64,000 nt of DNA from an uncultured Terracidiphilus sp. (GTDB taxonomy: Bacteria; Acidobacteriota; Terriglobia; Terriglobales; Acidobacteriaceae). Below are positions 4,587 to 49,675 of this stretch, piece by piece. Numbering within the stretch: position 1 is the stretch's first letter; each line of letters starts with the position of its first letter. The position numbers and the translations under genes are program-made. Location of the stretch: positions 42,641 through 106,640 of the forward strand of contig CAYTJN010000001.1 in the NCBI GenBank assembly GCA_964438125.1, read 5' to 3'. The notes beneath the pieces are model-generated. The model was given only the letters and a program-made list of their open reading frames with translations, was not told the origin of the DNA and did no database searches.

Positions 4587-4595
4587 CGATCTCCG

Positions 4596-6146: not shown

Positions 6147-6193
6147 CCGTGGCTTCCTCCGGAGTTTAGATTGCTTTGAGTTAGTTAGTCAGG

Positions 6194-8122: not shown

Positions 8123-8364
8123 TGCGTAGCCCTCCTGACAATAATGTCGAGCGCCTCTCCAATGTTCTTTAGTCCATCAATTTCACCGCTCGTGAAGCGG
8201 AACGAAAACTCTTTTTCCACGGCAACCAGAAAGCGAACATGGCTGAGACTGTCCCATCCCTCAACATTATCCGCAGTGAGGCTGTCATCGTACTGTAGGT
8301 CGTCCTCGTCGAATACGTCACGCATGATTTCGATTAATCGCGCAGCAGCTTCATCTCGGGTCAT
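8119..8364 (-). CDS. acyl carrier protein
   Basis: The 81-aa protein is acidic and has a phosphopantetheine-site-like GWDSLSHVRF. Confidence 0.8.
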   Translation of the reverse strand: MTRDEAAARLIEIMRDVFDEDDLQYDDSLTADNVEGWDSLSHVRFLVAVEKEFSFRFTSGEIDGLKNIGEALDIIVRRATQ

Positions 8365-8434
8365 CGTGTGCTTGCTCTCCTATGGACTGAAAGACGTAGG
8401 ATTTCTGTTCAGTGGGATATTGCCTGACTGTACA

Positions 8435-11034: not shown

Positions 11035-11608
11035 GCACACTCCGCTCTTCAGCCGCGTTTGCATTGACCTTCTCAACATTTGTTGCAATGGACGGCGTCT
11101 TTCGCGGAAGCACTCGCGCCGGAACTCCGACTGCGACGGAATTAGAGGGAACATCGATAAGAACCACTGCGTTGGCTCCGATTACAACGTCATCCCCTAT
11201 TCGGATCGCGCCAAGGATCTTGGCGCCCGCGCCTATGTCCACACGGTTCCCGAGGATGGGTGCTCCGCGCTGACCGGTGTACTTCAGTCCCACGGTGACG
11301 CCGTTGCGGATCACGCAGTCGTCCCCGAAGACTGCGTCTCCGCTGATGACAATCCCGCCGAAATGGTCGATTCTAAATCGCCGCCCAAGCGTTGCTTCAC
11401 AAGGAAGCTCGATCCCCGTAAGGACTTCGGAAATAGGCTTCAGCACCTTATAGACAAAAGAGAAGGGAACTCGCAGCCAGCGCCAGCGAATCGTATAGCG
11501 CCAGCGCCCATAGCGGTAAACTGCCATTGCCCAAAGACCCTGGCGGGAGATTTGGCGGTCGTGCGTTTGCCAGTCTTCGCGGATGCTGTCGAACAAATCC
11601 AGCCTCAA
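11018..11608 (-). CDS. left-handed beta-helix (hexapeptide) acetyltransferase, serine-acetyltransferase/WcaB-like
   Basis: Hexapeptide repeats are visible: GGIVISGDAVFGDDCVIRNGVTVG...RVDIGAGAKILGAIRIGDDVVIGANAVV. Confidence 0.75.
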   Translation of the reverse strand: MRLDLFDSIREDWQTHDRQISRQGLWAMAVYRYGRWRYTIRWRWLRVPFSFVYKVLKPISEVLTGIELPCEATLGRRFRIDHFGGIVISGDAVFGDDCVIRNGVTVGLKYTGQRGAPILGNRVDIGAGAKILGAIRIGDDVVIGANAVVLIDVPSNSVAVGVPARVLPRKTPSIATNVEKVNANAAEERSVHATSR

Positions 11609-11653
11609 TCCTTTCAGAGCGTTTGCTCAAATCAAGTGCTGTTTTACGGATCG

Positions 11654-12745
11654 TTAGACAGAGAGCGGCACGCCGAGTTCTCGAAGAATCCGCTTGAAGC
11701 CCAATAAAGCGTGAGACTCGGTGCAGTGCTCGGCGGCGAAAGCGCGGCCCGCCTCGCCAAGCTGTGCGCAAAGTTCCGATTCGTACCACATCCGGCGCAA
11801 TACGCTCGTCATTTCATCTACGCTTTTGGCTGAGAACATCAGCGCGTTGTCCCCCTCGCGAACGTAGTCTACAACACCTACTGAGCGTGTGATCGCGAAA
11901 GCTTTGCCCAGATGCATCGCGTTGACCAGCGTAACGTGTCCGCAGGGAACTCGCGCGCCATCCAAAGGAAGTGCCATAAACCTGGAGAACGCAAGTACAT
12001 TCATGGCCTGACCGAAAGGAATATCGGTCATGACTTTGACGTTGGGAGGAATATCAATGCCGACGACATTCTCAGGCCGGACCACCATCACCACCCTGAT
12101 CTCCGGGAGGCGCTTCACCGATTCAATAAATGTCCGGTAGTCGCGCGAGTTTCCCCCAATGGCGCAAAGGTAATCGCCCTCCACGATAGGCTTGCCGGGC
12201 GAATCGATGTGAGGAGGAGCGACACCCCAATGCGTAAACTCCAGAAGCTCCAAGGGAATATTGAAATGCTCGTGATAAAGTTCACGCTCTATCGTTGAAT
12301 AAACCACAAATCTGTCGATCCCCTTAAATCCGAGGCGATGCAGGCGGCTCTTCAATCCGGAGGGCAGCCATGGATAGTTGAAAGAGAAAGCCAAATGCGG
12401 ACCACGATAACTATACAGCTTCAAGAAATGCTGGACAGCAAAGGATATTCGCGGGTCATGCGTAACCACAATGCTCGCGCCCAAGTCTTGTGCCGCGCGC
12501 GCTGCTCTAAGGCAAGCGGAGAACCGTCGCAGGTTGCCGTTGTTTCGAAACAGGGGAGTGTGCAGCGAATCTTTTGCGGAGAAATGCCGCCAGCGTAGCG
12601 TATCTTCGGTGTGGGGTTCAAAAAAATCTCCCTTTTGCGTTGTGTGGGAGCAGTTGATGACCAGCGGTTTCTCTTGAACGACCTGGTCGCTCGCGTCCGC
12701 AACGGATGAAATGGAGATCTCTTCCAGTTGGTTCATTGTGGCCAC
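11654..12745 (-). CDS. GT-B fold glycosyltransferase (GT4-like)
   Basis: The call rests on a 363-aa size, a C-terminal E-x7-E-like region (VVDYVREGDNALMF) and the locus context. This is a weaker motif match than for the other GTs. Confidence 0.55.
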   Translation of the reverse strand: MATMNQLEEISISSVADASDQVVQEKPLVINCSHTTQKGDFFEPHTEDTLRWRHFSAKDSLHTPLFRNNGNLRRFSACLRAARAAQDLGASIVVTHDPRISFAVQHFLKLYSYRGPHLAFSFNYPWLPSGLKSRLHRLGFKGIDRFVVYSTIERELYHEHFNIPLELLEFTHWGVAPPHIDSPGKPIVEGDYLCAIGGNSRDYRTFIESVKRLPEIRVVMVVRPENVVGIDIPPNVKVMTDIPFGQAMNVLAFSRFMALPLDGARVPCGHVTLVNAMHLGKAFAITRSVGVVDYVREGDNALMFSAKSVDEMTSVLRRMWYESELCAQLGEAGRAFAAEHCTESHALLGFKRILRELGVPLSV

Positions 12746-12851
12746 GATCCTTTGTGATTGGATTCAAAAGTAGACTGGGCGGCTCAATCCAAATGAGACT
12801 TCCTGCGGGTCAAACGCCGATTCATTCTTCCGTCCGCCGCTCATTCAAGGA

Positions 12852-13454
12852 CTATCGTTCGCGTATTCCGGCCGATGCGCTAACTGCGCGCGCAGGCACT
12901 CCCACGACCGTCGCTCCCGGCGGCACATCGCGGGTGACCACCGCGTTGGCGCCTACGGTCGCTCCGTCTCCGATCGTAACTCCGCCTAGTACAGTCACGC
13001 CACGACCAATCCACACCTCATTGCCGATGTCGATGGGTTGCGCGATGTGGCCAGACTCGCGAATTGTCAATCCCGGTAGTCGGACATGATTTGCGTCGCG
13101 TATGCTTGAGTACTCGCCAATCATGGTGCCATCGCCGATGGTTATACTTTCGTGTGAAACGATGTGCACTCCGCGCGAAAGCACGACTTCGTTGCCGAGG
13201 TGAATGTATCCGCTGTCCTCTGTTTCAAAATAGACTGCCGGATACAGGAGCACATCCTGCCCGATGCGGATCATGCCGGTGCCGTGCACTTCTGCAGGAC
13301 CCAGTACGAGCACCGACGCATGGAGCGAATGCGAAAGCTTGGACGACAGTAGGGCGTGGTTGCGGATGTTCCCGATGCTTCGACGCAGTCCAAAGGTCGT
13401 TCGGTAAAACAACGACAGCAGCGATGTTAGCAATGATTTCAGTTTGCGGCGCAT
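12852..13454 (-). CDS. hexapeptide-repeat acetyltransferase
   Basis: Motif: NEVWIGRGVTVLGGVTIGDGATVGANAVVTRDVPPGATVVGVPAR. I chose the start at ATG 13454 (MRRKLKS) because the longer ORF overlaps the upstream GT2. Confidence 0.8.
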   Translation of the reverse strand: MRRKLKSLLTSLLSLFYRTTFGLRRSIGNIRNHALLSSKLSHSLHASVLVLGPAEVHGTGMIRIGQDVLLYPAVYFETEDSGYIHLGNEVVLSRGVHIVSHESITIGDGTMIGEYSSIRDANHVRLPGLTIRESGHIAQPIDIGNEVWIGRGVTVLGGVTIGDGATVGANAVVTRDVPPGATVVGVPARAVSASAGIRER

Positions 13455-13498
13455 AGAGTTTCCTGGCAGATCGATGTGGGCTTCATGGCGCAGGTTAT

Positions 13499-14503
13499 TT
13501 ACCACGGCTGTTGAGGAGAGAAGCGTCCACCCCTTGTATCGCGCCAGGCCTCGCTCATGATCGTGATCATGAATCGATCCGTTTTGGCACTCTCGCGGCG
13601 ATCTGGATTTCTGCTCCATCGCCTCCGATGCGAGCGCAGCCAATACCAGCTAGCTTCGATTACCATAGCCAGCCATACGGACAATCCATGATGTTTTCGA
13701 TAGTAGAGCAGCATACTCCTCATGCGCCATAGAGTGAGTTGTGCCCCGGTGCGGGAGAACTGGAGCGATCGCACCTGCCGGGAGGACTCTCCACCGATAT
13801 GAACGATGGCGATATCCGGCCAATACCAGATGGAGTATCCATGTTCCTTGATACGTTTGCAAAAGTCGACCTCTTCGAAGTAAAGGAAGAAGCGCGGGTC
13901 GAAGGGGCCTACCGCTGCAAGCACTTCGGCGCGTACGATCGAATACGCGCCGGGAACCCAGTCGACCTCCGCTGCTTCCATTGGATTGGCCCAGGTGCGG
14001 TCGGCACGCCCAAAGAAACGCGATCTTGGAAACTGCGCCGCAAGCCCAGAAAGAACCAGCAGGTCGCTGAATGCGGTCGGAAACATACGCGCCGATGGCT
14101 GCCATGAGCCATCCCGTCCTGTTAGGCGTCCGCCGCCCAGCCCCGCATCGGGAGTCTGGTCCATATGTGCAACTGACCTTTCGAGCGATCCTTCAGTTAG
14201 AAATGCATCCGAGTTAAGAAGAACAATGTACCGACCACGTGCAAATTGGAAGCCGCGATTGTTCGCAGGGCCAAAACCAAGATTGATCTCACTCCGGACC
14301 AAGAAAACATCCGGAAACTCTTGCTCGATCATAGCGGGAGAGCCGTCCGTCGAAGCGTTATCGACCACAATGACCTGGACCCGTAGCGACCCCCTTTCGC
14401 GAAAAACTGCACGAAGACATTCTCGTAAAACGTCTCTAGTATTGAAGGACACAATCACGATGGAAACGTCGAATCGAAAGACAATCGAGCTCTGAGTATG
14501 CAT
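13499..14503 (-). CDS. family 2 glycosyltransferase (rhamnosyltransferase-like)
   Basis: Motifs are VSIVIVSFNTRD, VVDNASTDGS and LLNSDAF. ATG 14503 is preceded by AAGAGGG and lies 7 nt after the upstream stop. Confidence 0.8.
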   Translation of the reverse strand: MHTQSSIVFRFDVSIVIVSFNTRDVLRECLRAVFRERGSLRVQVIVVDNASTDGSPAMIEQEFPDVFLVRSEINLGFGPANNRGFQFARGRYIVLLNSDAFLTEGSLERSVAHMDQTPDAGLGGGRLTGRDGSWQPSARMFPTAFSDLLVLSGLAAQFPRSRFFGRADRTWANPMEAAEVDWVPGAYSIVRAEVLAAVGPFDPRFFLYFEEVDFCKRIKEHGYSIWYWPDIAIVHIGGESSRQVRSLQFSRTGAQLTLWRMRSMLLYYRKHHGLSVWLAMVIEASWYWLRSHRRRWSRNPDRRESAKTDRFMITIMSEAWRDTRGGRFSPQQPW

Positions 14504-14510
14504 AGCCCTC

Positions 14511-15863
14511 TTAGATGCTATTGGGCGCATGCTCCCGAAAAACACGCGCCAGCAAGCCAACGTTTAACGGCAGGTTGTAAAGATCGAGCACTCGCTTGCA
14601 AGCTGCCGCTCCAAGACTGCGCCGCAAGGATGGATCTTCGATAAGCCGTTCGATTGCCGACGCCAAGGCTTCGATCGAGGAGGCGGGAACGAGCAATCCG
14701 TCGAGACCATCGCGAATCAGTTCGGGGATACCCGCAATGCGTGTGCTCACGCAAGGAACCTCCATGGCCATCGCCTCCATCAGTGCGACCGGCACGCCTT
14801 CGGCAAAACTGGCCAAGGCGAAGATATCCGCGGAGTCAAGCAAGCGCCGCGTCTCGTCGTGGCTTTTTGCTCCCTCGAAGACCACGGGGATCTTCTCCTG
14901 CTCCGCGTAGACTTGCAAATGTTCAAGGTCAGGCCCAGCGCCCACGAGACGCACCCGAAATGAATGGCCGGAGGCAAGCAAGATAGCGCAAGCCCTCAAG
15001 AGGATGAGCTGTCCTTTCGATGGTACAAGCCGGCCTACGCATAGGATCTCGAGCGGGCCTCCTTCGGGCTCAAACTGTTTCCGCGACGGACGAAAGACAT
15101 TTGGATCGATTCCCAGTCTCACTACATGCATCTTGTCCCAGTGGACCGGAGCCGCGATGCGCATCAACTGGCTTCGGCAAAAGTCGCTGATGCAGAGGAT
15201 AAACTTTGCGTGCTCGATCTTCTGAGGGAGATAGAATTTCTCCACATCGTAGAATTCGTCCGGGCCGTGTACAGTCAGCGAATAAGAGAAACCCCACGCC
15301 GCCGATGCCAACATGCCCACAGTCGCCACCGGGCCGCAAAAGTGAATGTGAAGATGATGAAGACCGCGCAAACGCATCCAGTCGCCCAGAATGAGAGCCT
15401 CGGCAAAATAGAAGAGAGAATAAAGAGTCGCGGTCGGATTCCACTGCCCCAATCGCAGTGCGCCCGCCAGCCCCCGGGCAAAGACCATGGGCCTCAGAAG
15501 CAGCGTCTTCGCGGCAATCGCCGTGGCGCGCGCAGTTCCCTTTGACTTGATGTAAAACGTCCTGTCGGCCTCTTCCACTTCCGCCACCGGCATCGAAGTA
15601 CGTGGCCGGTCGGGCGGATTGATCGATGCTACTTCAACATTGCAGCCGTGTTTCCTGAGCTCTTTGATTTCGTTTAGAAAGAATGTGTGCGAGACGGCAG
15701 GATAGCGACTCAGAAGATAGACAAGCCGCCAAGGAGTTGCCCCGTTCCGATCCTTCGCCGCGCGGAGTTCGTCGGTGAGCGCGGAATCTGTGTGTGTTTC
15801 TGTATTCAAAATCATCGCTGCACTGCCGGCTCGCTGCCTTAGATTCTCAGAGCTCGTGTCCAT
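14511..15863 (-). CDS. group 1 (GT4) glycosyltransferase, WcaL-like
   Basis: The N-terminus reads LVYLLSRYPAVSHTFFLNEI. The C-terminus reads SFAEGVPVALMEAMAMEVPCVSTRIAGIPELI (EX7E). Confidence 0.8.
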   Translation of the reverse strand: MDTSSENLRQRAGSAAMILNTETHTDSALTDELRAAKDRNGATPWRLVYLLSRYPAVSHTFFLNEIKELRKHGCNVEVASINPPDRPRTSMPVAEVEEADRTFYIKSKGTARATAIAAKTLLLRPMVFARGLAGALRLGQWNPTATLYSLFYFAEALILGDWMRLRGLHHLHIHFCGPVATVGMLASAAWGFSYSLTVHGPDEFYDVEKFYLPQKIEHAKFILCISDFCRSQLMRIAAPVHWDKMHVVRLGIDPNVFRPSRKQFEPEGGPLEILCVGRLVPSKGQLILLRACAILLASGHSFRVRLVGAGPDLEHLQVYAEQEKIPVVFEGAKSHDETRRLLDSADIFALASFAEGVPVALMEAMAMEVPCVSTRIAGIPELIRDGLDGLLVPASSIEALASAIERLIEDPSLRRSLGAAACKRVLDLYNLPLNVGLLARVFREHAPNSI

Positions 15864-17167: not shown

Positions 17168-18124
17168 TCACGCAGTACGGAAGATTTGGTAGTATCCCAA
17201 GGCTGCGAGCACTCGCTTGAATGCAAGTTCACGCGCATAATGTTTCGGAGTCAATTCTTCAAATGGAATCGTGCGACCCGGCTGAGTCAGCGTGGCTCGC
17301 CCGTCTACCAATCCGGTCTCGCGGGCTGCATGCAACCACCACTTTGCCTCGCCTCCGGCGTGGAAGCATTTCAGGCTCGCCCAAGATTCCGATCGCAGAA
17401 TGCTCTGCCCGCTCACGCCAAGTTTCGTCATCACGCGCTTTGCCGGCGAACGGCGCCAGCATCTCCAGAATGCGGGATCAAGATGGCCTCCACCCTCGCG
17501 CATGGCCAGCGCCGCCCACACGATCGCTTCTACGTGCATGATGCGCGGCAGATTATCGCCGCCCAGTTTGCCCACCAGCCAGTCCAGCCAATCCAGATCT
17601 GTCGATGCGCGCCAGTGCGCGACTCCGATATCCACATGGTGCGCGAGCCGGATTCCGCTGCCGAGAGCTGTCCTGACTACCTCGGGGGGGAAAAGGCAGT
17701 TCGGCTGTTGCCACATCAGCAATAGTCCGGTTGCGGGTGTTTTCTCAAACTGAAATCGATTGGGGAAATAAAGATCTGGATCCAGGAGCACCATCTCCGC
17801 ATCAGGTTCGCTCACTAGAAGTGGATCGGTGATCTTGCGCCAGCACGGGTGCCCGCGGCGAAACTTGCGCAGGTTGTTATATCTCGCGAAGACAGCATCC
17901 TCACGCGCCTTCAAATTGTCCTCGGAATAGACCGTCCACTTGTGAGACCTGACATCAAGAGCCGTCAAAACCTCTGAGAGTTCCTCGCTGTCCTGCCTCG
18001 AGTCGGTGATCAGACGCAGGTGTATCGATTCAAGAGAATTCGAAAACAAACTTTCTAACGCATCTTTGGCATAGCTTAGAGAGCGCGGCGAGAGCACCAT
18101 ATACACTTCGCGCATTGTAGACAT
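17168..18124 (-). CDS. hypothetical protein, possible GT-A-like nucleotide-sugar transferase (DxD-like LLDPDLYF)
   Basis: The 318-aa ORF is tightly packed: 13 nt after the C-T-TE gene and 6 nt before the next GT4. Only a DPD motif is recognisable. Confidence 0.4.
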   Translation of the reverse strand: MSTMREVYMVLSPRSLSYAKDALESLFSNSLESIHLRLITDSRQDSEELSEVLTALDVRSHKWTVYSEDNLKAREDAVFARYNNLRKFRRGHPCWRKITDPLLVSEPDAEMVLLDPDLYFPNRFQFEKTPATGLLLMWQQPNCLFPPEVVRTALGSGIRLAHHVDIGVAHWRASTDLDWLDWLVGKLGGDNLPRIMHVEAIVWAALAMREGGGHLDPAFWRCWRRSPAKRVMTKLGVSGQSILRSESWASLKCFHAGGEAKWWLHAARETGLVDGRATLTQPGRTIPFEELTPKHYARELAFKRVLAALGYYQIFRTA

Positions 18125-18137
18125 AGGGGGCTCCTGT

Positions 18138-20777
18138 TTATTTCAAAACTGCTGCGGGTTCACGCAAGCGAACCTCGGCAACGCCGGAGCGCTCCAGATC
18201 GGATCGTTCGGCTTCGGATCGTTCAAGACAGGCGCGAAGTTGCGCCGCCAAAACCTGGATGTTCGGTTCGCGGAAGACTAGGTCGTGATCGCCAGGCAGT
18301 TCAAACACCTCAACTCCACCTTCCGCGAAGGGAGTCCATCCCAGATCCAGCGGCAGCCGCGGATCCGGCTGGACGGAAGCTCGGAAGAGCGTCACCTTTC
18401 CTGACCAGGGTTGCGCACGATACTTCATCGCCGCCACCCAGGTTATGTCGTCGGTGCTTTTCATAAACGATGGTACGGTGCGAAAACCGAGCACGACCGC
18501 AAGCGAGTAGATCCGGCGCAAGGTTCTTGTAAAAAACTTCTGCCACAGATACTCGATCTTTTCTGTCATCGATAGATCGGAGAGATTTCCTAGAAAGCGC
18601 TCGATTCGGCGACTGAGTTGAAGCCTCACGGAATCGTTCCGTTGCGCGACGCCGATGCAGTCACGCTGGCGGCTATCGAGCATGCCGAGTAGTTTCACCT
18701 GTTCCCCTAGTGTGCGCAACTGATGTGCGATTTCAAGGGCAATCGTGCCCCCGAATGAATATCCGAGGAAATAGTACGGACCCGTTGGTTGGATCTCCCT
18801 CATTTCCTTCAGATAGAACGCTGCCTGATCTTCTAAGCGCAGAAGTGCCGGCTGCTCAGCCAGCAGCGACTGAGCTTGAATGCCATAAATAGGGTGTTTG
18901 GTACCCACCAGCATAGCGAGTTGGTAAAAGCGAATTACGTTTCCACCAGCGCCGTGAATGATAAACAGAGGAGCTGCCGTTCCCTCCGGCTGCATCGGTA
19001 CGATTGAGGAACTGCCGTTTGCGGAAAGACGCTGCGTGACTAACTGCGCCATCCGTTCAACCGTGTGCCCTGAGAACAAAGAAGCTAGACCAAAACTGAG
19101 CGAGTAAGTCTTATTGATTCGGGAGACGATTTGCATTGCGGCCAGTGACCGCCCGCCGAGGTCAAAGAAACTGTCTCGAACGCTCAGATTTGTCGTCCCT
19201 ATTGCCGTCTCCCATATTCTGGCGATCTGTGCCTCAAGCGCGTCGCGGGGAGCCACGTGGAGTTCTCTCTGCTTTGCGGCGACATCTGTTCCCTCGATGG
19301 CGCCTGCGTTCCGATGTCCATTCGGACGGATGACTCGTTCCTGGGCTGCGCCCTCAGAAGCCCCGTCTGAAACCGCAATGAGCTGCTGGCTGCTTTCGCC
19401 TTTCGCCGCTTCCCCCGCCAGACTTTCCGCGCTCGATAGAATGGTGTCAAGAATCTGCACATAAAGCTTGAGAATCCGTTGAATCGTCGAAACGCGAAAG
19501 AATGCTGGATTGAATTCCAACTGGAGGCGGGGACCTTCAGTACGCTCCACGATGCTCAGCATCAGGTCGAACATCGTTCCTGGACTGACGGAGCGCAGGG
19601 GAAAGATCTCCAAAGAAGGCGTCTTCTGGGCCTGCATGAAGGCCTTCTGATAAATGAAGTACACCTGCAGTGAGATTTGATTTTGATCACGGCAAAAAAA
19701 CTCGTCATCGATCAGATCCTCGAAAGGTAGGTCCTGGTGAGCCAGAGCACCAAGTGTCCAGTTACGAACGCTTTCTACGATCGAGTCAAGAGTATCTTCT
19801 TTTCCGATCTTAACGCGAATGACCTGAGGGTTTGAAAAGGGACCGATCAGGTCCTCCGTTTGTTGACGGCGATTGGCGCAGGGCGTGCCGATAAGGATGT
19901 CTCCCTGCTCCGTCAGCCTGTGCAGAGTCGCGGCGTAGGCCGCGAGCAGCAACATATAAAGTGTGACCCCGCGAAGCGCGCAGAAATCCCGAGCCTGCCG
20001 AACCAGATCGGGAGCCAGCAAAAGAGTCTCGATATCGCCGTGTTCTTCGACTCCTCCTCCGTGAATATCTCGGGGGATTCGAAGAGGAGTGAAGTTCCCA
20101 CCGAGAGTTAGACGCCAGTAGGCCAAAGACTCGGTCGACTGTTCTCCCTTTCTCCATTGGTCGAGCCAGACGGCGAAATCGCCAAACTGAATGGGCAACT
20201 CCGGGAGGCAAGGGGGAAGGTTTCGCATCAGGCCGTCATAGATTGCAGCAAAGTCCCTGAGCACTACGCCGTTCGACCATCCGTCGCACACGCTGTGATG
20301 AATCGTGATCAGGAGTATGTGCTGGTCGGCTCCCATCTGTATTGCCCGAGCACAAAGCAGTGGTCCCTTCTCCATATCGATCTTGATACGGGCTTGCTCA
20401 CGAATGATTGCTTCGGCCTGGCGTTGACGGGCATCATTCGGTAGATATTGCAGGTCATCTAAATGCAGGGGCACTTCGATGGGCGAATGAATGATCTGAG
20501 ATAACTGGCCATCTACTACTTCGAAAGTCGTGCGCAGCGACTCGTGTCGACGCACCAGTTCCGTAAGCGCGGCTGCCGCTAGATCCGTAGAGAATGTTCC
20601 TCGGCAGGTCCATGCGAGGGGCATATTCAGTGAGTGGTTGCCGGGGTACATTCGATGCAGCAACCAAAAACGTGTTTGGCACGGTGTCGCCGGCATCACA
20701 AAGTCGTCCGTTGGCGTCGGTATCGCGGGGCGCTCAACTTCGTGAGGAGGAATCGACTTGTCCGGTGAGCTCTTCAT
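18138..20777 (-). CDS. NRPS terminal module C-T-TE with no adenylation domain
   Basis: The C domain has HHSVCDGWS (aa 159-167). The T domain has FFDLGGRSL (Ser544, about nt 19146-19148). The TE has GYSFGG (Ser674) and GDHD (His831). Its ATG shares one base with the upstream TGA at 20777. Confidence 0.9.
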   Translation of the reverse strand: MKSSPDKSIPPHEVERPAIPTPTDDFVMPATPCQTRFWLLHRMYPGNHSLNMPLAWTCRGTFSTDLAAAALTELVRRHESLRTTFEVVDGQLSQIIHSPIEVPLHLDDLQYLPNDARQRQAEAIIREQARIKIDMEKGPLLCARAIQMGADQHILLITIHHSVCDGWSNGVVLRDFAAIYDGLMRNLPPCLPELPIQFGDFAVWLDQWRKGEQSTESLAYWRLTLGGNFTPLRIPRDIHGGGVEEHGDIETLLLAPDLVRQARDFCALRGVTLYMLLLAAYAATLHRLTEQGDILIGTPCANRRQQTEDLIGPFSNPQVIRVKIGKEDTLDSIVESVRNWTLGALAHQDLPFEDLIDDEFFCRDQNQISLQVYFIYQKAFMQAQKTPSLEIFPLRSVSPGTMFDLMLSIVERTEGPRLQLEFNPAFFRVSTIQRILKLYVQILDTILSSAESLAGEAAKGESSQQLIAVSDGASEGAAQERVIRPNGHRNAGAIEGTDVAAKQRELHVAPRDALEAQIARIWETAIGTTNLSVRDSFFDLGGRSLAAMQIVSRINKTYSLSFGLASLFSGHTVERMAQLVTQRLSANGSSSIVPMQPEGTAAPLFIIHGAGGNVIRFYQLAMLVGTKHPIYGIQAQSLLAEQPALLRLEDQAAFYLKEMREIQPTGPYYFLGYSFGGTIALEIAHQLRTLGEQVKLLGMLDSRQRDCIGVAQRNDSVRLQLSRRIERFLGNLSDLSMTEKIEYLWQKFFTRTLRRIYSLAVVLGFRTVPSFMKSTDDITWVAAMKYRAQPWSGKVTLFRASVQPDPRLPLDLGWTPFAEGGVEVFELPGDHDLVFREPNIQVLAAQLRACLERSEAERSDLERSGVAEVRLREPAAVLK

Positions 20778-23700
20778 CAGGCATTGGTTCTCCGAAACTT
20801 TTCCCTTGAAACAGGCGCAATGACGGGTCCCGCGGGAGGCTTTTCAGTGCTTGAGATATTGGCTTCAACAAGAGCATTCGACAGACTGGCGATGGTGCGA
20901 TGCTGAAAAATCTGCGCGGGTTGGATCGGTAGTCCTTCATGCCCGGCACGGGCTGAAATCCTGAAAATAAGAAGCGAGTCAGCTCCCAACTCAAAGATGC
21001 TATCGGTGATGCTGACTCGATCGAGATTCAAAACATCAGCCCAGATTGCCACCAGCTTTTGCTGCTCAGGCGTTGTCGCAGGGGTAAACTCCCGCGTTTT
21101 AGTATGGGTTCCAAAGGTCGGTTCTGGCAAAGACCTGCGGTCGATCTTACCGTTAGCAGTGCGCGGCAAGGCGGGCAGCAAGGAGATGACAGTCGGATGC
21201 ATATACTCAGGCAGTTTCGCAGCCAGCAGGGAGTGCAGTTGCGCGTCTAGATCTATTGGCGGGGTGACCATCGCCGACTCCACCCAGGCCGCCAGCCTCA
21301 CGTCACCGGGCCTGACTTGGACTGCGGTCACCACCGCATCTCGTACCGATGGATGACTCGCAAGAGCTGCCTCTATTTCGCCCAGTTCAATCCTGAAGCC
21401 GCGTACCTTCACCTGGAAATCGGTCCGTCCCTGCAGTTCAATGTGACCGTTCTGGAGCCAGCGCGCCTGATCGCCTGTGCGGTAGATTCGTCCCTGGCCG
21501 AATGGGTTCGGCAGAAATTTTGCGGCAGTCAAATCGGGTCTCTTCCAGTAGCATCGAGCCAACCCGACCCCACCAATGTATAGCTCGCCGGTTACTCCCA
21601 ACGGTACTGGTTGCAGGCGCTCGTCAAGCACATAGAACTGGGTGTTGGCGATGGGCGGTCCAATCGGCACCGGGCCTGTCCGTTTTTCGAGCCGGGTTGC
21701 CGAAGACCAGATGGTGGTCTCCGTCGGCCCGTAAACGTTCCATACATCGTCACTGCAATCCATCAGCGAATCGGCAAGTTCGCGGGCCAGAGCCTCGCCG
21801 CCGCAGAGCACTTTGAGCCGCGGAAGCCCCTTCCAGCCTGCCTCTAGCAGAATCCGCCAACCTGCCGGCGTCGCCTGCATCACTGTGGCCTGGGTCTGCT
21901 CCAGCAGGTTGAGCAATTGGTACCCATCGACAACCTGTTCTTTGGTAGCAATTACCAGCCTGCCCCCAGTTACGAGAGGCAGAAAGAGTTCAAGCGCGGC
22001 AATGTCGAACGAAAGAGTTGTGACCGAAACTAGCGTGTCCGTAGCGTTCAAGCCAGGTTCCCGCTCCATGCTCCGAAGCAGGTTGGTCAGTGCTCCATGT
22101 TCGATGGCTACGCCCTTGGGCTGTCCCGTGGAGCCGGAGGTATAAATCACATACGCCAAAGAATCGGGCTCATTTTTCGTGACAAGGTCCGTGGTACCTT
22201 CCCTCGCCCATAATGTCCGCTCGCTGTCAAGGCAAACGACCCGCGCGCTGGCGTGCAGCCTTGAGGCCAAGTGTTCCTGGGTAAGCAGCAGGGCTACGTG
22301 CGCGTCAGAAAGTACCCATTCCAGGCGGCTGATAGGGTGGCTGGGGTCGAGGGGTAGATATGCCGCGCCCGCCTTGAGTACTCCCAATACCGCGCCCAGC
22401 ATCTGGAAGGAGCGCTCAAGGCATACGCCCACAAGAGAGCCTTCGCCAATTCCCTGGCGGCGGAGATGTCGGGCCAACCGATTACTGTATTCGTTAAGTT
22501 GTCCGTAGGTCCACCGCGCTCCGTCGCAGATTACCGCAACACGATCGGGTGAATATGTGGCTTGTTTCTCAATGGCTCGATGGACCGGTTCAAACGGCCC
22601 GAAATCCACCGCCGTGCGGTTCCACTCGTCGAGCACCAGCCTTCGTTCGCTTTCATCCAAAACCTCGAGATCCTCGACCTCGCGGCCTGCGTCCGCAGCT
22701 ATTCCGCGCAGAATCGTTGCGTACGAGGCCAGCCAGCGTTTGAGTGTTTCGCTGTCGATCAGGTCGGTATTGTAATCGCAATTCATCAGAAGATCGTCGT
22801 CGGTTTCAACGATATTCAAGAAGAGGTCCGTGTTCACGAATCTCTTCGGATTGGCATGCACTTCTGTAGCAAGCCCCTCGAAGTGGAGATTTGTTCCCAG
22901 TTTCTCCAAGTTGAACTGGACTTCAATCAATGGCAGGCGGCTTGAATCCCGCTGAATCGGCAGCTTGCGCAACAGCGTGCCGTAGGTGAATTCCTGATGG
23001 TCATAAGCATCGAGAAGTTGTCCGCGCGTGGTGGCCATGTGTTCTTTGACTGTGATGGCCCTCGATAGAACGCTCAGAATCGGGAGGAAATGCACGCAGT
23101 GTCCTACGAGGCTCGCGTCTTCATATAAGGCTTGTCCGGCAGATGAAATGCCGACCACCACTTCGGACTGCCGCGTCAGTCGATGCAGCAGAATCTGAAA
23201 CGCCGAAAGCAGGGTCACATACAGCGTGCAGCCAAGTCTGGAGCTGATTTTTTTAAGCTCCCCGGATAGCTCCGCACCCAAAGATGATTGCAGTGTCGCT
23301 CCCTTGTAGGACTTCATCGCTGGGCGCGGCCGATCGGTGGGCAGGTCCAGCACCGGTGTGTGTCCAGTGAAAACCTCTATCCAGTAACGCTCGTTTTCGG
23401 CATAAGTGCCCGCTTGAGTTTCTTCGAACTCCTTCAGCGCATAACTGCTAAAGGGAACCAGCGGCGCCAGAGCCGGTTTGGAATGGGTCTTTGATGCACT
23501 GTAGATCTTGCTCATATCCTCAAGCAGTTGGTTCGATGACCACCCGTCGAGTACGATATGATGCCCAGTCGCAAGTAGCAGTAACTCTTCGGGGGCTGTG
23601 CGGAAGAGCGTTGCCCGGAAAAGCGGGCCACGAGCCAAATCGAAGGGCTTGCATCCTTCTTCCGCGATACGCGCGTTGATGAATGCCTTACGCTCTTCGG

Positions 23701-26700
23701 CGGAAATCGCGCTCAAGTCAACGAACGCGATCTGGCCTGTGAACGCGGGTGCGATCCTCATGCATTCCTCGTCGGGATCGACCGTCGAACGAAGAGCGTC
23801 GTGGCGTGCGATGGCCGCTTCGAGCGCATGCAGCGTTTGATCCTCGCGCGCCGGACCTCGCAGGCTCAGCGTCAGCGATTCGTTAAAGGCGCAGTTGGCC
23901 TCGCTGCCTCGCGTGGCTGCCAGCCAGATCTCGCGCTGCGATTCGGTGAGGGGAACTTTGGCTGGAGCCTCGTAGGCGCTTGATGTGACGCGTGAGGCTT
24001 GATGAAATTCCGGCAACATGGCCGTGGCAGGCGCGGGGACCTCTAGAACTGCCGGAGCCGGCAACATGCCGCCACGGCGCATCTCTAGGACTGATTCGCG
24101 GAAGCCCTCAACAACGTGCGCAAAATCCTCATCGGAGTGCGCAGTGGTAAAGAAGCAGGGGTAGTTCTCGAGGATGTGAATACCCTTCTCGCGCATGTGG
24201 TAATACAGAAGGCTGCCGAAGCGGGCTTCCGTGGGCAAGTTGAATGAGAACCACGCGCCGCATGGGTGCACGCCAACATCGAGCGCGGCATCTTTAAAAA
24301 TCTCTGCCACGGCCTGCGCTGCGGAGGCCACCTTCCGACTGAGGGTTTCTTGGAGTTGCGGTCCCGCTTCCTTTAGATGGCGCAGGATGGCCTTGGCTGC
24401 TGCGAGAGCCAGCGGATGGCGCACAAACGTTCCAGCAAAGAACGTCATCCCAACCTCGGGAGCCGAGTCATCGCCGTATTGCCACGCACCGCCATCGAGC
24501 GTGTCAAGGAACTCCGCTCGTCCCGCTACCACGCCGATCGGATAGCCACCGCCCATCACTTTACCATAGGTGGCCAAATCGGCGCGAATCCCGTAGTACT
24601 CCTGTGCCCCGCCGAGAGCCACGCGGAAACCAGTCACCACTTCATCGAAGATCAGCGCTGTTCCAGATAGAGCGGTGATTCTGCGCAGTTCGCTCAGAAA
24701 CTCACGCGGCTGCACTTCTGGATGACGGCTTTGAATGGGCTCGACCAGAACTGCGGCGATCTCATTGCCATGTGCACGAACGTACTCCAGTGATGCTTGC
24801 GCTCCGTATTCCAACACCACAGTGTTGTTCGAGCCTCCCGCCATGATGCCGGGAGCAATCGGCGCGGCGCCGTGCGGTGTGGCTCGTAGCAGAACTTCGT
24901 CGAAAGTCCCGTGATAGTCACCCGTGAAGTAAACGATTTTGTCGCGAGCAGTCACCGTGCGTGCCACGCGCAGCGCCGCCATCACCGCTTCAGATCCCGT
25001 ATTGCAAAACGCGGCGCGCTCCATGCCTGTTAGCTCGCAGATCAGAGCCGCAACTTCACCTGACAGCGAACTCTGCGGGCCGATCTCAACGCCCAGATCG
25101 ATTTGGTTGTGCACGGCTTCATTCACAAAATCCGGTCCGTGCCCGAACATGATCGCGCCAAAACCGTTGACGATGTCGATGTATTCGTTGCCGTCAAGAT
25201 CCACGATCCGCGAGCCTTTTGAGCGGCAGGTCACCAACGGGTAGACCATTTCCTTCCACAAGGACCGAAAACCTGCGACGGCCCGCGGATCGGAAAGATG
25301 TGGCCGATACGCTTGCGTATACTCCTTTGACTTACCGGTGCGGCTCGTGTAGCGAGAGATGAGTGACTGAATGTACTCGCTCTGCTTCTCTGTCAGCCCG
25401 TCTTTGGTCCCCGCCTGCACTGGTTTGAATGGCCCATGCGTCTTAAGTCCGCCAGATGGTGCGACGGAAACTGCTGCGCTCCCGACGGCGTTCTTCGCAG
25501 CGGCCGGCAGAGAACTGCCTGACTGTGCGCAGGCTTGCTGCGTTTTGATGTCAGGCGCTGCTCCGCGGACCGCCGCGAGTTGCTGTTCAAAAAGCCTGGA
25601 CATTGCCTGCATCTGCGCTCGCAACAGCTCTTCGAGAGCCGAACCTGTCTCGGCGGAAAGTGGAGCGTCTGCCGCAGGAGCAACCCCGGCGATAGCTGCG
25701 GTAGGCTGCGCCTGTTCTTGAGGGAAAGCATCTGCGGGAAGAATCGCGTCCAGTCGTTCGGCGAGCATGCGAATGCTTGAGTACTGTTCCACGATCTGAC
25801 GGAAGGTCACCTTCACGCCGAAGCGGCGCTGCACCGCCTGCGTCGCCTGGGTCAGAAAAAGAGAATCGAATCCCAGCTCCAGAAACGATGTGTCGAAGTA
25901 TTCCGAGCCGATGGCAATCCCGCTTAATTCCTCAAAGAGCCTTGCAACAACAGGCTGAAGCCTAAGACTGCGTTCAACTGCGATTCCAACTACATCAAGG
26001 GTCATCTTTCCTTCTCCCCCAATTTGTACTTCAGTCTCTCGGGTCGCAATGTTCGATTGGAGGGGAGCGTTGGCCGCAATCGCGCCGGCCGCCACGTATG
26101 CGGGTGGCTCGATCCAATGCTTCTTGCGTTCGAATGGATAAGTGGGAAGTGAAATGCGGCGCCTACGTTCGTGGTTCCAAACACGCTCCCAATCCGGCTG
26201 AATACCGGTTGTCCATAGCCGGCCCAGGGCCTCCAGCATGGTTCCCGAATCACCCGCTTCCCCGGTACGCTCCGGCATGGATGCCACGATCGGCACGGCG
26301 CGATTGCCGCGCTGCTGTCGCGCAAGGGTCGTCAGCGACTGCCCCGGCCCCACTTCCAGCAGCACAGCTTCGGGCAGGCCGAGCAAGAGCTTCACGGCGT
26401 CGGCGAAACGCACAGGCTTCCGGCAATGATCCCGCCAATAACGCGGCGTGATCGCTTCTTCCGGTTTGATCCAAGTACCAGTCACTCCGGAGACGTATGG
26501 AATCGTGGGCGCATGAAGAGCGACTCGCCGAACTTCATCCTCGAAGGCATCGAGCATCGGGTCCATCATTGCGGAATGGAAGGCGTGCGAAGTTCGCAAG
26601 CGTTTGCATTCGACCTGCTCCTCTCGCAACAGCTTCTCCAATTCCTCAATGGCTTCCAGCGGTCCCGACGCGACACTCAGTGACGAGCTGTTTACTGCTG

Positions 26701-28777
26701 CAATCGAAAGCTGTTCGCCGATAAAAGACCTGATCTGCTCATCGCCTAAGCGCACCGAGAGCATCGCCCCGCGCTCCATCTGCTGCATTAACCTGCCGCG
26801 CACTGCGACCAGCCTAAGCCCATCTTCTCGCGACATCACATCTGCAGCGACGGCGGCAACAAATTCCCCGATGCTATGCCCAGTCATGGCCTTCGGCGTG
26901 ACGCCCCACGCCATCCATTGCCTGACCATCGCGAGTTCAGTGATGAATAGTGCAGGTTGCGCCAATCGCGTTTCAGTTAATGCCTCCGCGCAGGCATTTG
27001 AGTCCGCACCTGCCGGAAAAAGAATGTTGCGCAGGTCGAGATCCAGCAATGGGCGCAGGATTTCTGCGCATTCATCGATTTCTTTCCGATAAACGGCCTC
27101 AGTCTCATAGAGTGCGCGACCCATCCCTGGATACTGCGCGCCCTGCCCGGTGAAAAGAAAGATCGGTTGGGGCCTGGCGAGTACGCTCGCGGACCTCTGA
27201 ATCCGCCGGTTCGCAGGGTCTGCAAGCGTCCGCGCAGCTTCGTCCACACTCGAGCATACGACCGATGCGCGATAATCGAATCCGTGTCGGCCTGTCTGGA
27301 GCGTATAGGAAACGTCCGCTAGATTCGATTTGGGATGTTCTTGCAGATAGCGGCCGAGGTTACCAAGCGCCGCATCAATCGCGGTCTCAGAACGCGCGGA
27401 CACCGTGAGCAACTGGGTTGGGCGCACGGAAGGTTCCAGTGAAACATGTGGCCCTTCTTCGAGCACCACATGTGCGTTCACGCCTCCGACGCCAAAGGCG
27501 CTCACGCCGGCCATGCGCGGGCCATCGGACTTCCATGGCGAAGCTTCGCCGCTCACAAGAAAAGGTGTGTTCGCAAAATCGATCCGCGGGTTTGGGCGGC
27601 GGAAATTGGCCACCGGCGGGATAGTTTTATGCCGCATAGCGAGCACGGTTTTGATCAACCCGCTGACTCCTGCCGCTGCGTCTAGGTGGCCGATGTTTGC
27701 TTTGGTGCTGCCCAGTGCGCAGAAACCATTTTGCTGCGTCGTTTGGCGAAAGGCCCTAGTCAGCGCGGCAACCTCGACGGGATCGCCCAGCGGCGTTGCG
27801 GTGCCGTGCGCTTCAACAAACGTAATGGCGTCCGCGCTGATTCCTGCCATTGCGTGGGCGGCTGCGATAGCCGCAGCTTGTCCATCCACGCCGGGGGCCA
27901 TGTAGCTGACCTTCGCTGCGCCATCGTTGGAGACCGCAAAGCCGCGAATGACGGCGTCGATGCGGTCGCCGTCGTTAAGCGCATCTTCCAGTCGCTTCAG
28001 CAGCACCACCCCCACACCGTGTCCAAACACAGTGCCTGTCGCGTCGGCGTCGAATGGGCGGCAATGACCGTCGCGCGATCCCATGCTGCCTTCCTGAAAG
28101 ACATGGCCGCGATGTTGTGGGAACGTCACCGACACGCCGCCGGCAAGCGCCATGTCGCACTGGTACGTTAAAAGATTCTGGCACGCCTGACAGATCGCGA
28201 CCAGCGATGTTGCGCACGCGCCTTGTACCGTCATGCATGGCCCACGCAGGTTCAGCTTGTAGGCCACGCGGGAACAGAGAAAGTCCTTATCGTTGCCCAG
28301 CGTCGTCTGAAGTTCGCCGACCTGGTAGTTGCCCGTGAGTTCGTCGATAAACTCCCGGGTTGCGCTCAGGTTTGCCAGCAAATAGGTGTTCAGGCTGCAT
28401 CCGCCAAAGATGCCGATCTGCCCAGCAAATTGCGCCGGATCATATCCGCCATCTTCGAGCGCATTCCAGCAAGTCTCCAGAAACAACCGGTGCTGCGGGT
28501 CTAGAACATCAGCCTCACGCGGTGGTATGCCGAAGAAGCCGGCATCGAACATCTCGGCACCTTCGAGAACACCGTGAGCTGCCACGTAGTCGGCGCCGAA
28601 CTCCAAAGACGCATGGTTTTTGGCTTCCAATTCCTCGCGAGAGAATTGTGTGATCGTATCTTTGCCTGCCGCGACATTTGCCCAAAAGATATCGAGATTC
28701 GGCGCGCCGGGAAACTTGCCCGACATGCCGATGATTGCAACGCCTTCGAGACGGTTTTCGTTTTCAGGAGTGCTCAT
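20777..28777 (-). CDS. hybrid PKS-NRPS: KS-AT-ACP-aminotransferase(class III PLP)-C-A-T
   Basis: The true start is ATG 28777 (MSTPENENRLEGVAIIGMSGKFPGA). Approximate domain coordinates follow. KS is at 27458-28750 (GACATS Cys, EAHGTAT, NIGHLD). AT is at 26273-27166 (GHSIGE, HAFH). ACP is at 25748-26005 (LGFDSL). AMT is at 24083-25405 (GSEAVMAALRVAR, FDEVVTGFR, ATYGKVMGGG). C is at 22658-23965 (HHIVLDGWS). A is at 21128-22600 (YTSGSTGQPKGV, NVYGPTETT, YRTGD, GKIDRR). T is at 20858-21085 (LGADSL). Confidence 0.95.
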   Translation of the reverse strand: MSTPENENRLEGVAIIGMSGKFPGAPNLDIFWANVAAGKDTITQFSREELEAKNHASLEFGADYVAAHGVLEGAEMFDAGFFGIPPREADVLDPQHRLFLETCWNALEDGGYDPAQFAGQIGIFGGCSLNTYLLANLSATREFIDELTGNYQVGELQTTLGNDKDFLCSRVAYKLNLRGPCMTVQGACATSLVAICQACQNLLTYQCDMALAGGVSVTFPQHRGHVFQEGSMGSRDGHCRPFDADATGTVFGHGVGVVLLKRLEDALNDGDRIDAVIRGFAVSNDGAAKVSYMAPGVDGQAAAIAAAHAMAGISADAITFVEAHGTATPLGDPVEVAALTRAFRQTTQQNGFCALGSTKANIGHLDAAAGVSGLIKTVLAMRHKTIPPVANFRRPNPRIDFANTPFLVSGEASPWKSDGPRMAGVSAFGVGGVNAHVVLEEGPHVSLEPSVRPTQLLTVSARSETAIDAALGNLGRYLQEHPKSNLADVSYTLQTGRHGFDYRASVVCSSVDEAARTLADPANRRIQRSASVLARPQPIFLFTGQGAQYPGMGRALYETEAVYRKEIDECAEILRPLLDLDLRNILFPAGADSNACAEALTETRLAQPALFITELAMVRQWMAWGVTPKAMTGHSIGEFVAAVAADVMSREDGLRLVAVRGRLMQQMERGAMLSVRLGDEQIRSFIGEQLSIAAVNSSSLSVASGPLEAIEELEKLLREEQVECKRLRTSHAFHSAMMDPMLDAFEDEVRRVALHAPTIPYVSGVTGTWIKPEEAITPRYWRDHCRKPVRFADAVKLLLGLPEAVLLEVGPGQSLTTLARQQRGNRAVPIVASMPERTGEAGDSGTMLEALGRLWTTGIQPDWERVWNHERRRRISLPTYPFERKKHWIEPPAYVAAGAIAANAPLQSNIATRETEVQIGGEGKMTLDVVGIAVERSLRLQPVVARLFEELSGIAIGSEYFDTSFLELGFDSLFLTQATQAVQRRFGVKVTFRQIVEQYSSIRMLAERLDAILPADAFPQEQAQPTAAIAGVAPAADAPLSAETGSALEELLRAQMQAMSRLFEQQLAAVRGAAPDIKTQQACAQSGSSLPAAAKNAVGSAAVSVAPSGGLKTHGPFKPVQAGTKDGLTEKQSEYIQSLISRYTSRTGKSKEYTQAYRPHLSDPRAVAGFRSLWKEMVYPLVTCRSKGSRIVDLDGNEYIDIVNGFGAIMFGHGPDFVNEAVHNQIDLGVEIGPQSSLSGEVAALICELTGMERAAFCNTGSEAVMAALRVARTVTARDKIVYFTGDYHGTFDEVLLRATPHGAAPIAPGIMAGGSNNTVVLEYGAQASLEYVRAHGNEIAAVLVEPIQSRHPEVQPREFLSELRRITALSGTALIFDEVVTGFRVALGGAQEYYGIRADLATYGKVMGGGYPIGVVAGRAEFLDTLDGGAWQYGDDSAPEVGMTFFAGTFVRHPLALAAAKAILRHLKEAGPQLQETLSRKVASAAQAVAEIFKDAALDVGVHPCGAWFSFNLPTEARFGSLLYYHMREKGIHILENYPCFFTTAHSDEDFAHVVEGFRESVLEMRRGGMLPAPAVLEVPAPATAMLPEFHQASRVTSSAYEAPAKVPLTESQREIWLAATRGSEANCAFNESLTLSLRGPAREDQTLHALEAAIARHDALRSTVDPDEECMRIAPAFTGQIAFVDLSAISAEERKAFINARIAEEGCKPFDLARGPLFRATLFRTAPEELLLLATGHHIVLDGWSSNQLLEDMSKIYSASKTHSKPALAPLVPFSSYALKEFEETQAGTYAENERYWIEVFTGHTPVLDLPTDRPRPAMKSYKGATLQSSLGAELSGELKKISSRLGCTLYVTLLSAFQILLHRLTRQSEVVVGISSAGQALYEDASLVGHCVHFLPILSVLSRAITVKEHMATTRGQLLDAYDHQEFTYGTLLRKLPIQRDSSRLPLIEVQFNLEKLGTNLHFEGLATEVHANPKRFVNTDLFLNIVETDDDLLMNCDYNTDLIDSETLKRWLASYATILRGIAADAGREVEDLEVLDESERRLVLDEWNRTAVDFGPFEPVHRAIEKQATYSPDRVAVICDGARWTYGQLNEYSNRLARHLRRQGIGEGSLVGVCLERSFQMLGAVLGVLKAGAAYLPLDPSHPISRLEWVLSDAHVALLLTQEHLASRLHASARVVCLDSERTLWAREGTTDLVTKNEPDSLAYVIYTSGSTGQPKGVAIEHGALTNLLRSMEREPGLNATDTLVSVTTLSFDIAALELFLPLVTGGRLVIATKEQVVDGYQLLNLLEQTQATVMQATPAGWRILLEAGWKGLPRLKVLCGGEALARELADSLMDCSDDVWNVYGPTETTIWSSATRLEKRTGPVPIGPPIANTQFYVLDERLQPVPLGVTGELYIGGVGLARCYWKRPDLTAAKFLPNPFGQGRIYRTGDQARWLQNGHIELQGRTDFQVKVRGFRIELGEIEAALASHPSVRDAVVTAVQVRPGDVRLAAWVESAMVTPPIDLDAQLHSLLAAKLPEYMHPTVISLLPALPRTANGKIDRRSLPEPTFGTHTKTREFTPATTPEQQKLVAIWADVLNLDRVSITDSIFELGADSLLIFRISARAGHEGLPIQPAQIFQHRTIASLSNALVEANISSTEKPPAGPVIAPVSREKFRRTNA

Positions 28778-49456: not shown

Positions 49457-49675
49457 GTCACCCCCATCTGAGTGCTGACAATTCTGTTTTTTCTTTGTCG
49501 ATCGAATCAGGACAGGTGCAAGAGCGAGTAGCTCCCGACACCAAAGCAACAACAGCAAAGTGAAGCCAATGGAACAATTCTCGGTTCTGAGCGCTGAAAA
49601 AATCTGTTCTGTTTTGTCCGGTGGAAAAAGGGAAGGTGCTAGAGCGCATCGCTCCGAGCACTACAGTTACACCAA

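Follow-up and report, generated by a model that had tools for sequence, protein, structure and literature searches.

How is the last carrier domain of a peptide assembly line charged when the module that holds it has no adenylation domain? This question is raised by a 64,000-nucleotide stretch of DNA from an uncultured Terracidiphilus sp. (contig CAYTJN010000001.1), which we refer to as the window; all coordinates are those of this whole stretch unless another locus is named. On its minus strand, a nonribosomal peptide synthetase (NRPS) gene at 18138-20777 encodes a protein of 879 amino acids (aa) with a condensation (C), a carrier (T) and a thioesterase (TE) domain, as the original prediction had it. 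The protein forms module 3, the final one, of a hybrid line that consists of three proteins and is conserved in the Acidobacteriaceae; its domains are called C3, T3 and TE here. Specificity logic and comparative genomics lead us to propose, with a probability of roughly 0.6, that T3 is aminoacylated with glycine by A2, the adenylation (A) domain of the upstream protein.

The terminal module has no A domain yet is intact

When the translation of the gene, which starts with ATG, was scanned against Pfam profiles, Condensation, PP-binding and Thioesterase domains were obtained and nothing else passed the threshold. C3 occupies aa 28-453 (19419-20696; PF00668, E = 2.5e-80), T3 aa 517-580 (19038-19229; PF00550, E = 1.9e-10) and the TE aa 603-860 (18198-18971; PF00975, E = 1.8e-24), all on the minus strand. 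The motifs that had been read from the DNA beforehand were all found in the translation: HHSVCDGWS at aa 160-168 (HHSVCDG, aa 160-166) in C3, FFDLGGRSL at aa 537-545 in T3, and GYSFGG and GDHD (aa 672-677 and 829-832) in the TE, the latter containing the expected GDH. Ser544 of T3 (codon 19146-19148) is the putative site of phosphopantetheine attachment. Compared to a canonical C-A-T-TE termination module, the protein has a C domain with HHxxxDG, a carrier with a predicted phosphopantetheine Ser and, judged by its motifs, a TE with a Ser/Asp/His triad, but there is no A domain between C and T. A cryptic or degenerate A domain was ruled out by a rescan of the whole 879-aa protein and of the isolated 81-aa C-T linker, in which neither AMP-binding nor AMP-binding_C gave a Pfam match at E <= 10. 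The terminal module is truly A-less, and the earlier claim to that effect stands.

We found more than 1000 homologues of the protein. The named records among them are from Acidobacteriaceae: Terracidiphilus (up to 86% identity), Tunturiibacter, Edaphobacter, Granulicella, Bryocella and Terriglobus. A contig from a peat metagenome (L084; related loci carry L numbers) is 98-100% identical to the window. The terminal gene occurs in two length classes, one of about 870 aa with the C-T-TE layout seen in the window and one of about 1355 aa with the layout C-A-T-TE. Examples of the second class are P0078 of locus L001, which at 66% identity is the closest relative bearing the additional domain (A3), and the protein of Granulicella rosea (L058).

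Alignment with P0078 and other A3-bearing forms placed the C-T linker of the window (19230-19418, minus strand) where the C-A-T-TE orthologues have an A3 of about 515 aa, the alignment gap being about 500 aa. The linker has no Pfam match. It had been described as some 40 residues of low complexity; a low-complexity stretch of that size is present, but the whole gap measures 63 residues by Pfam boundaries. Within the clade of the window a conserved PNG was seen in the linker at the position where L001 reads PNGKIDR. This is possibly a relic of the A-domain core A10 (PNGKIDR), too short to count as a domain.

The nearest solved homologues of C3 are ordinary elongation C domains (Txo1/Txo2, TycC6 and PvdL), together with the A-less CmnI (PDB 9UAY), which was among the PDB sequence matches at E = 4e-36. 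Given glycine as both donor and acceptor, as proposed here, it would be of little consequence whether C3 is of the LCL, DCL or starter subtype. The TE could be aligned from end to end with the TEs of the AB3403 module (the best PDB sequence match, E = 4e-21) and of Pks13.

Conservation of the A-less module argues that it is functional. Wherever an A-less orthologue from the conserved cluster was read without a break in its frame, it retains HHxxxDG, the Ser of the carrier and the GxSxG of the TE, and H160, D165, G166 and S544 are invariant in the alignment designated A1. Among the closest relatives T3 is 92-97% identical, compared to 77-88% for C3. This is the pattern of a module that is A-less yet under purifying selection. 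Since the protein has no A domain and the module is intact, T3 must be served from outside the protein, which supports the original proposal that the carrier is loaded in trans. The Arg that precedes the carrier Ser, also pointed out originally, is real. It characterises the Terracidiphilus clade, where the motif reads GGRS or GGQS, and does not go with the A-less state in general: the motif is GGHS in L001, and elsewhere GVGS, GVSS or GAGS is found whether A3 is present or not, the other A-less clades having GVSS or GAGS.

One alternative is that T3 is never aminoacylated at all. The module would then be skipped or act as a pass-through, with the chain moving from T2 of the upstream protein to the TE or with C3 taking a free nucleophile, and the A-less product would be one Gly shorter. 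Module skipping is known in NRPS systems, and the Terriglobus loci described below, where a C remnant is fused to A-T-TE, show that the pathway tolerates drastic truncation. On the other hand, one would expect a C-T without use to degenerate or to disappear along with A3. Instead, each A-less version of the conserved cluster that was read still has HHxxxDG in C3 and the Ser in T3, down to about 43% identity, and in close relatives T3 is among the best-conserved parts of the protein. We therefore consider skipping improbable.

Specificity codes point to glycine as the substrate of T3

The three NRPS genes are translationally coupled, with TGATG stop/start overlaps at 28777 and 20777, and the C-T-TE gene is the last of them. 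The first gene (28777-30765, minus strand) encodes a stand-alone A1-T1 loading module, and its stop overlaps the start of the ketosynthase (KS) gene. That it is a Thr-coded A-T protein, as noted originally, was borne out by Pfam and by its code, DFWNIGMVHK. The second gene (20777-28777, minus strand) encodes a 2666-aa hybrid of polyketide synthase (PKS) and NRPS for which Pfam gave the order KS-AT-ACP-aminotransferase-C2-A2-T2 (AT, acyltransferase; ACP, acyl carrier protein). In this protein the active-site Cys of the KS lies in GACATS, the AT reads HAFH (malonyl-type), C2 reads HHIVLDG and T2 (20870-21061, minus strand) reads FELGADSL. A2 (21146-22570, minus strand) has the code DILQLGVIWK (Gly) and is proposed to load T3 as well as T2. 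The window contains no A domain besides A1 and A2. A motif search of the window found no MbtH-like gene, which is weak evidence.

We took the ten Stachelhaus residues from 150 A domains by GrsA-PheA numbering, with a reference fragment identical to residues 231-526 of 1AMU. In nearly every locus A1 reads DFWN[IV]GMVHK, a code of the Thr family (PMC12283262). The A2 code across loci is DILQLG[VML]IWK, corresponding to Gly; DILQLGMIWK is reported to be a Gly-activating signature (PMC12283262). For A3 the code was DILQLG[LMV][IV]WK, again Gly, in 16 of the 17 readable loci, and the lone exception, L056, has the degenerate code EILSLDLICK. The residue added by the terminal module of A3-bearing orthologous clusters is thus predicted to be Gly, as in module 2, and never Thr. 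The need of T3 for Gly is read from the A3 domains of orthologues, so that the presence in the same line of an A domain with the needed specificity, namely A2, is established indirectly.

These data suggest the following pathway. A1-T1 would load Thr, KS-AT-ACP would extend it with malonate, the aminotransferase domain would convert the beta-keto group to a beta-amine, and C2-A2-T2 would add Gly. A2, located at the C-terminal end of the preceding protein, would also glycylate T3 at Ser544 and so serve both T2 and T3. C3 would then couple the T2-bound chain to Gly-S-T3, and the TE would off-load the product, predicted to be a Thr-derived diaminoacyl-Gly-Gly, perhaps to a sugar of the glycan pathway whose genes surround the line. 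In the lineage of the window a Gly-specific A3 would have been either deleted or never re-acquired. T2 of the upstream protein must dock on C3 anyway, and it is the A2 of this same protein that we propose as the loader of T3. In this scheme we infer the role of A2, Gly as the substrate and the fate of the product.

A3 has been gained and lost repeatedly

The order A1-T1 / KS-AT-ACP-AmT-C2-A2-T2 / C3-[A3]-T3-TE (AmT, aminotransferase) is common to about 60 loci, which belong to Terracidiphilus, Tunturiibacter, Edaphobacter, Granulicella, Bryocella and Terriglobus. The cluster is conserved in Acidobacteriaceae from peat, tundra and lichen samples. A literature search found no published description of this acidobacterial cluster. 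The stand-alone A-T gene is carried together with C-T-TE, and it is also kept where A3 is present. Because A1-T1 has the same position in the A3-bearing clusters, it acts as a loading module and not as a dedicated supplier of T3.

To follow the A3 domain we used a neighbour-joining (NJ) tree of C3 and T3-TE with the A region left out (65 sequences, 765 columns, 100 bootstrap replicates). A-less forms appeared in at least six places among the A3-bearing forms: the Terracidiphilus clade that includes the window, sister to L001; a Tunturiibacter/Edaphobacter clade near G. rosea; L039, with L056; Bryocella L035; L048, inside L050/L054; and a five-member Granulicella-type clade. Bootstrap support was 100% for L048 within L050/L054, 99% for L039 with L056 and 100% for the Terracidiphilus clade with L001. 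By Fitch counting, the presence or absence of A3 changed 6-8 times (median 8 over the 100 bootstrap replicates).

The C-T junctions were unlike between A-less clades in the alignment. In L039 there is a single clean gap of 523 aa with conserved flanks; in L048 about 16 residues of the A-domain N-terminus remain; and in the clade of the window the break comes directly after the C domain, with only PNG left. The changes in A3 state are independent events, and the nested cases are clear losses. A3 was lost without change of the flanking genes; L048, for example, has the same flanks as its sisters L050 and L054.

The A3 domains themselves resemble A2. In an NJ tree of A domains, A3 of the Granulicella group, an older paralogue of A2, formed a clade branching among A2 domains and shares 53-61% identity with A2 from its own locus, while A3 of L055 (76%) and L058 (65%) grouped with its own A2. 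In L001 the A2 and A3 proteins are 97% identical, and the locus contains a direct repeat of 1576 nt, 99.4% identical, at 8074-9649 and 11346-12921 (L001 coordinates). The repeat takes in the A domain, running from the C-A linker until shortly beyond core A10, and reflects a recent gene conversion or a re-insertion of the A domain into the terminal module. By these comparisons A3 is A2-derived and either homogenised with A2 or re-copied more than once, and whenever evolution puts an A domain into module 3 it is an A2-type Gly domain (the L056 code being degenerate). The repeated gain and loss of A3 and the clade-specific junctions fit a dispensable A3. Whether the events are losses or gains, module 3 needs what an A2-type Gly domain provides.

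Several points weigh against loading by A2. The argument is a comparative one, built on specificity and gene content, and specificity codes predict rather than prove the substrate. The identity between T3 and T2 is 25% in A-less compared to 27% in A3-bearing loci, so there is no sequence sign of T3 adapting to A2, and the idea that T3 converges on T2 in A-less lineages was rejected on these values. For the clade of the window itself the polarity can be read either way: deeper relatives, Bryobacterales L072 and the pair L046/L047 (C-C-T-TE), are also A-less, and A3 of L001 may be a recent re-insertion. The contig L163, which belongs to the A3-bearing L001 lineage, holds a hydrolase and a type II thioesterase that could be an older shuttle system persisting there. 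A crude column scan for convergent substitutions after A loss gave 4 candidate columns in C3 and 8 in T3; its filter was loose, and we did not use it as evidence.

Other routes to a charged T3

A second way to serve T3 would be a shuttle, with A2 (or A1) loading only its own carrier and a type II thioesterase (TEII) moving the aminoacyl group to T3. There is experimental precedent in LgnA, a TEII with the canonical GHSxG that collects Thr from LgnB-T0 and delivers it to the C-T of LgnD, which has no A domain (PMC8748450). A canonical TEII with GHSMG (38983-39735, plus strand; Pfam, E = 1e-45) lies within the span of the operon of the window and is conserved in Terracidiphilus-type clusters. 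However, a TEII is also found in the A3-bearing cluster and is a common editing enzyme of NRPS and PKS clusters, and in the Tunturiibacter-type A-less clusters none was seen within 10 kb of the NRPS genes. It is probably an editing enzyme here; a LgnA-like role is possible, and as the source of aminoacylated T3 we regard it as unlikely.

T3 might also receive its amino acid from an A domain or a ligase whose gene lies beyond the 64-kb window. In other pathways trans-acting A domains are known to be encoded far from the main NRPS genes (reviewed in PMC8949500). In the present case a Gly-specific A2 is at hand about 1.5 kb upstream, on the docking partner itself. An external partner would be needed for each of the 6-8 independent gains or losses of A3, and the losses left the flanking genes as they were. 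We consider such a loader very unlikely.

The original prediction drew attention to a hydrolase gene (40929-42362, minus strand), suggesting that it carries Thr from A1-T1 to T3. The gene exists, and its start at 42362 is likely as homologues begin at the equivalent Met. The product is a membrane-anchored Ser hydrolase with three predicted N-terminal transmembrane (TM) segments and a single GHSFG; Pfam assigned it to PAF-AH_p_II, and its catalytic domain matches the esterase 5YAE (E = 8e-36), PAF acetylhydrolases and PET hydrolases. SyrC and CmaE, in contrast, are reportedly soluble aminoacyltransferases with a Cys nucleophile, and SyrC enters the comparison by this description. Their role is cited in PMC8748450. 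Physical linkage of the hydrolase to the NRPS genes takes several forms: the hydrolase adjoins the C-T-TE gene in Tunturiibacter and Edaphobacter, lies between T-TE and A1 in L138, and travels with a cupin-like protein, p335 (39806-40813 in the window), the pair adjoining C-T-TE in L025-L033 and L045 (about 12500-15300). In Terracidiphilus-type clusters it is always part of the block p741-hydrolase-p335-TEII. The same genes are nevertheless present in the contig of the A3-bearing L001 (L163), where the hydrolase (P0203, 53% identity), TEII, flippase and Thr A-T occur in the same order, and the Granulicella group has the same downstream genes with or without A3. Thus, judged by L163 and by the downstream flanks of the Granulicella loci, neither the hydrolase nor TEII, the flippase or A1-T1 tracks the A-less state, and the hydrolase was rejected as a marker of it.

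A syringomycin-like split module, in which this hydrolase would shuttle Thr from A1-T1 to T3, Thr would enter last and the KS would be primed otherwise (for instance by the FkbH-loaded ACP of the cassette at 3498-8364), has in its favor a Thr-coded A1, the linkage just described and an architecture like that of SyrB1 and the C-T-TE end of SyrE (PMC8949500), but we give it hardly any credence, as A1-T1 is in place in every A3-bearing cluster with a readable upstream region and its stop shares bases with the start of the KS gene, the code of A3 in orthologues is that of Gly (degenerate in L056) and never that of Thr, the KS has the active site GACATS with no further starter module ahead of it, the hydrolase is an esterase/PAF-AH-like TM protein with a Ser nucleophile that also occurs with A3, and the FkbH/ACP/MBOAT cassette is absent from most related loci. 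Thr as the last residue and priming of the KS by the FkbH-loaded ACP were thus not borne out, and loading of T3 by A2 remains the reading that we prefer.

The surrounding locus and a possible link to a glycan

The NRPS genes lie mid-way in one long minus-strand operon, from about 49558 to 3498, that is otherwise a polysaccharide locus. It encodes WecG-STAS, several GT2 and GT4 glycosyltransferases, Poly_export/SLBB, a Wzc-like protein of 741 aa, Bac_transf, a GDP-mannose-dehydratase-like enzyme, hexapeptide acyltransferases, a MOP-type flippase and a GT-C-like protein with 10 TM segments. The first gene of this operon of about 46 kb (48860-49558, minus strand) encodes a NusG-family paralogue and has the same position in the related contigs L084-L140 and L163; it is possibly a processive antiterminator of the long polysaccharide/NRPS transcript. 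At the other end is a Dlt-like cassette (3498-8364, minus strand) with an ACP (8119-8364), an FkbH-like loader (6194-8122; TIGR01686, E = 9e-89), an MBOAT protein (4596-6146) and a protein of 362 aa with a single TM segment. The cassette resembles a system for attaching a glyceryl-type acyl group to an extracytoplasmic polymer. It is variable: among related loci the ACP together with p491 occurs only in L021, and L001 and L002 are without it. On the plus strand at 6-3236, truncated by the start of the window, is a large protein with 11 CHB_HEX_C_1/Fn3_assoc repeats, and L001 has a protein with similar repeats beside the cluster.

Downstream of the TE gene (17168-18124, minus strand) is p318, a 318-aa protein that, by synteny over 53 loci, follows the TE gene in most lineages, with the same glycosyltransferases after it. 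It is 70-86% conserved and gave no sequence-family match in Pfam, NCBIfam or a phmmer search of the PDB. An AlphaFold2 model had a mean pLDDT of 63, with 75-93 in the N-terminal half. Foldseek matched it only to retaining glycosyltransferases of the GT-A/GT8 type (XXYLT1, LARGE1, glycogenin and SetA), and a DPD (aa 115-117) follows the fourth strand. From the model we propose, with moderate confidence, that p318 is a GT-A/GT8-like glycosyltransferase.

Some relatives depart from the common layout. In the Terriglobus loci L078 (8975-13294) and L076, a C3 remnant comprising the last 70 profile positions is fused to A-T-TE with the code DIMELGMVWK. The gene sits between the flippase and p318 with its glycosyltransferases, and there is no Thr A-T and no PKS; these loci are a minimal version of the pathway. 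In another acidobacterial lineage (L047, 9908-13813; also L046), the terminal protein is C-C-T-TE, with two condensation-family domains and still no A domain. Records of metagenome-assembled genomes labelled Victivallales and Rhodanobacteraceae (L015, L055, L067 and L069) hold this otherwise acidobacterial cluster at 43-73% identity; these labels are probably binning errors.

The TE of Pks13 transfers its product to trehalose. The fold of p318, the likeness of the TE to those of AB3403 and Pks13 and the minimal Terriglobus loci together suggest, as a lead, that the C-terminal Gly end of the peptide is handed to the glycan pathway. It could be speculated further that the Thr-(beta-aminated C2)-Gly-Gly line is integral to a Wzx/Wzy-type glycan pathway, with the TE or p318 joining the peptide to a sugar; we hold this to be a doubtful extension of the data. 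If true, a cationic peptide-decorated exopolysaccharide or glycopeptide would be widespread in peat and tundra Acidobacteriaceae.

Comparison with known systems

An architectural parallel is syringomycin, in which SyrE ends in an A-less C-T-TE and a stand-alone protein, SyrB1, activates Thr (PMC8949500). Like module 9 of SyrE, the protein of the window is a terminal C-T-TE without an A domain and has a stand-alone Thr A-T nearby; the likeness is architectural only. Unlike SyrB1, the Thr A-T of the window is a loading module ahead of the KS and is kept where the terminal module bears an A domain of its own, which in orthologues is of the Gly type. Neither a Cys-type aminoacyltransferase nor a SyrB2-like halogenase was found here.

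The KS-AT-ACP-AmT-C-A-T logic is that of MycA of mycosubtilin/iturin and McyE of microcystin, as these are generally described: a beta-amino acyl unit is made and amino acids follow. In contrast to the fatty acid or polyketide starters of those systems, the present line starts with Thr from a stand-alone A-T, has three modules only and is part of a polysaccharide operon. The C-A-T-TE layout of AB3403 from Acinetobacter baumannii (PDB 4ZXH) is the layout of the A3-bearing orthologues; unlike the protein of the window, AB3403 has its own A domain and belongs to another pathway context.

In yersiniabactin biosynthesis a single A domain of HMWP2 loads Cys on three carriers, including the PCP of the A-less Cy-MT-PCP-TE of HMWP1. 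As in HMWP1, a terminal A-less T-TE in a hybrid PKS/NRPS line would rely on the A domain of a neighbor that uses the same amino acid. HMWP1 works with Cy domains and Cys, whereas the module of the window has an ordinary C domain and, by our reading, Gly.

A functional parallel is found in capreomycin and viomycin, where CmnI, which has no A domain, is charged by CmnA-A1, a "trans-iterative" A domain belonging to a different module (PMC12400406). As with CmnI/VioI, the A-less module of the window is on a separate polypeptide, and an A domain of the same line is here proposed to serve two carriers. CmnI is T-C, internal and specific for L-Dap; the protein of the window is C-T-TE, terminal and assigned to Gly, and is known here by comparative genomics. 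The direct proof of A-domain sharing in bacteria provided by CmnA-A1 and CmnI is only recent, and the module of the window would be a further example. Sharing as such was already known; what is added here is an A domain that came and went several times and an unexplored, glycan-linked acidobacterial pathway. It is unusual that the same module occurs with and without an A domain in close relatives, one lineage having a 99.4% copy of the neighboring A domain; for CmnI no A-bearing close relatives are reported. If A2 does load T3, the repeated loss and re-insertion of A3 would be a natural experiment in which an A domain is shared between adjacent modules at no cost. The cluster thus offers matched natural pairs, some of them culturable, such as Granulicella rosea (with A3) compared to Tunturiibacter species and Bryocella elongata (without it). 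These pairs could be used to learn when one A domain can serve two carriers, which would be useful for NRPS engineering.

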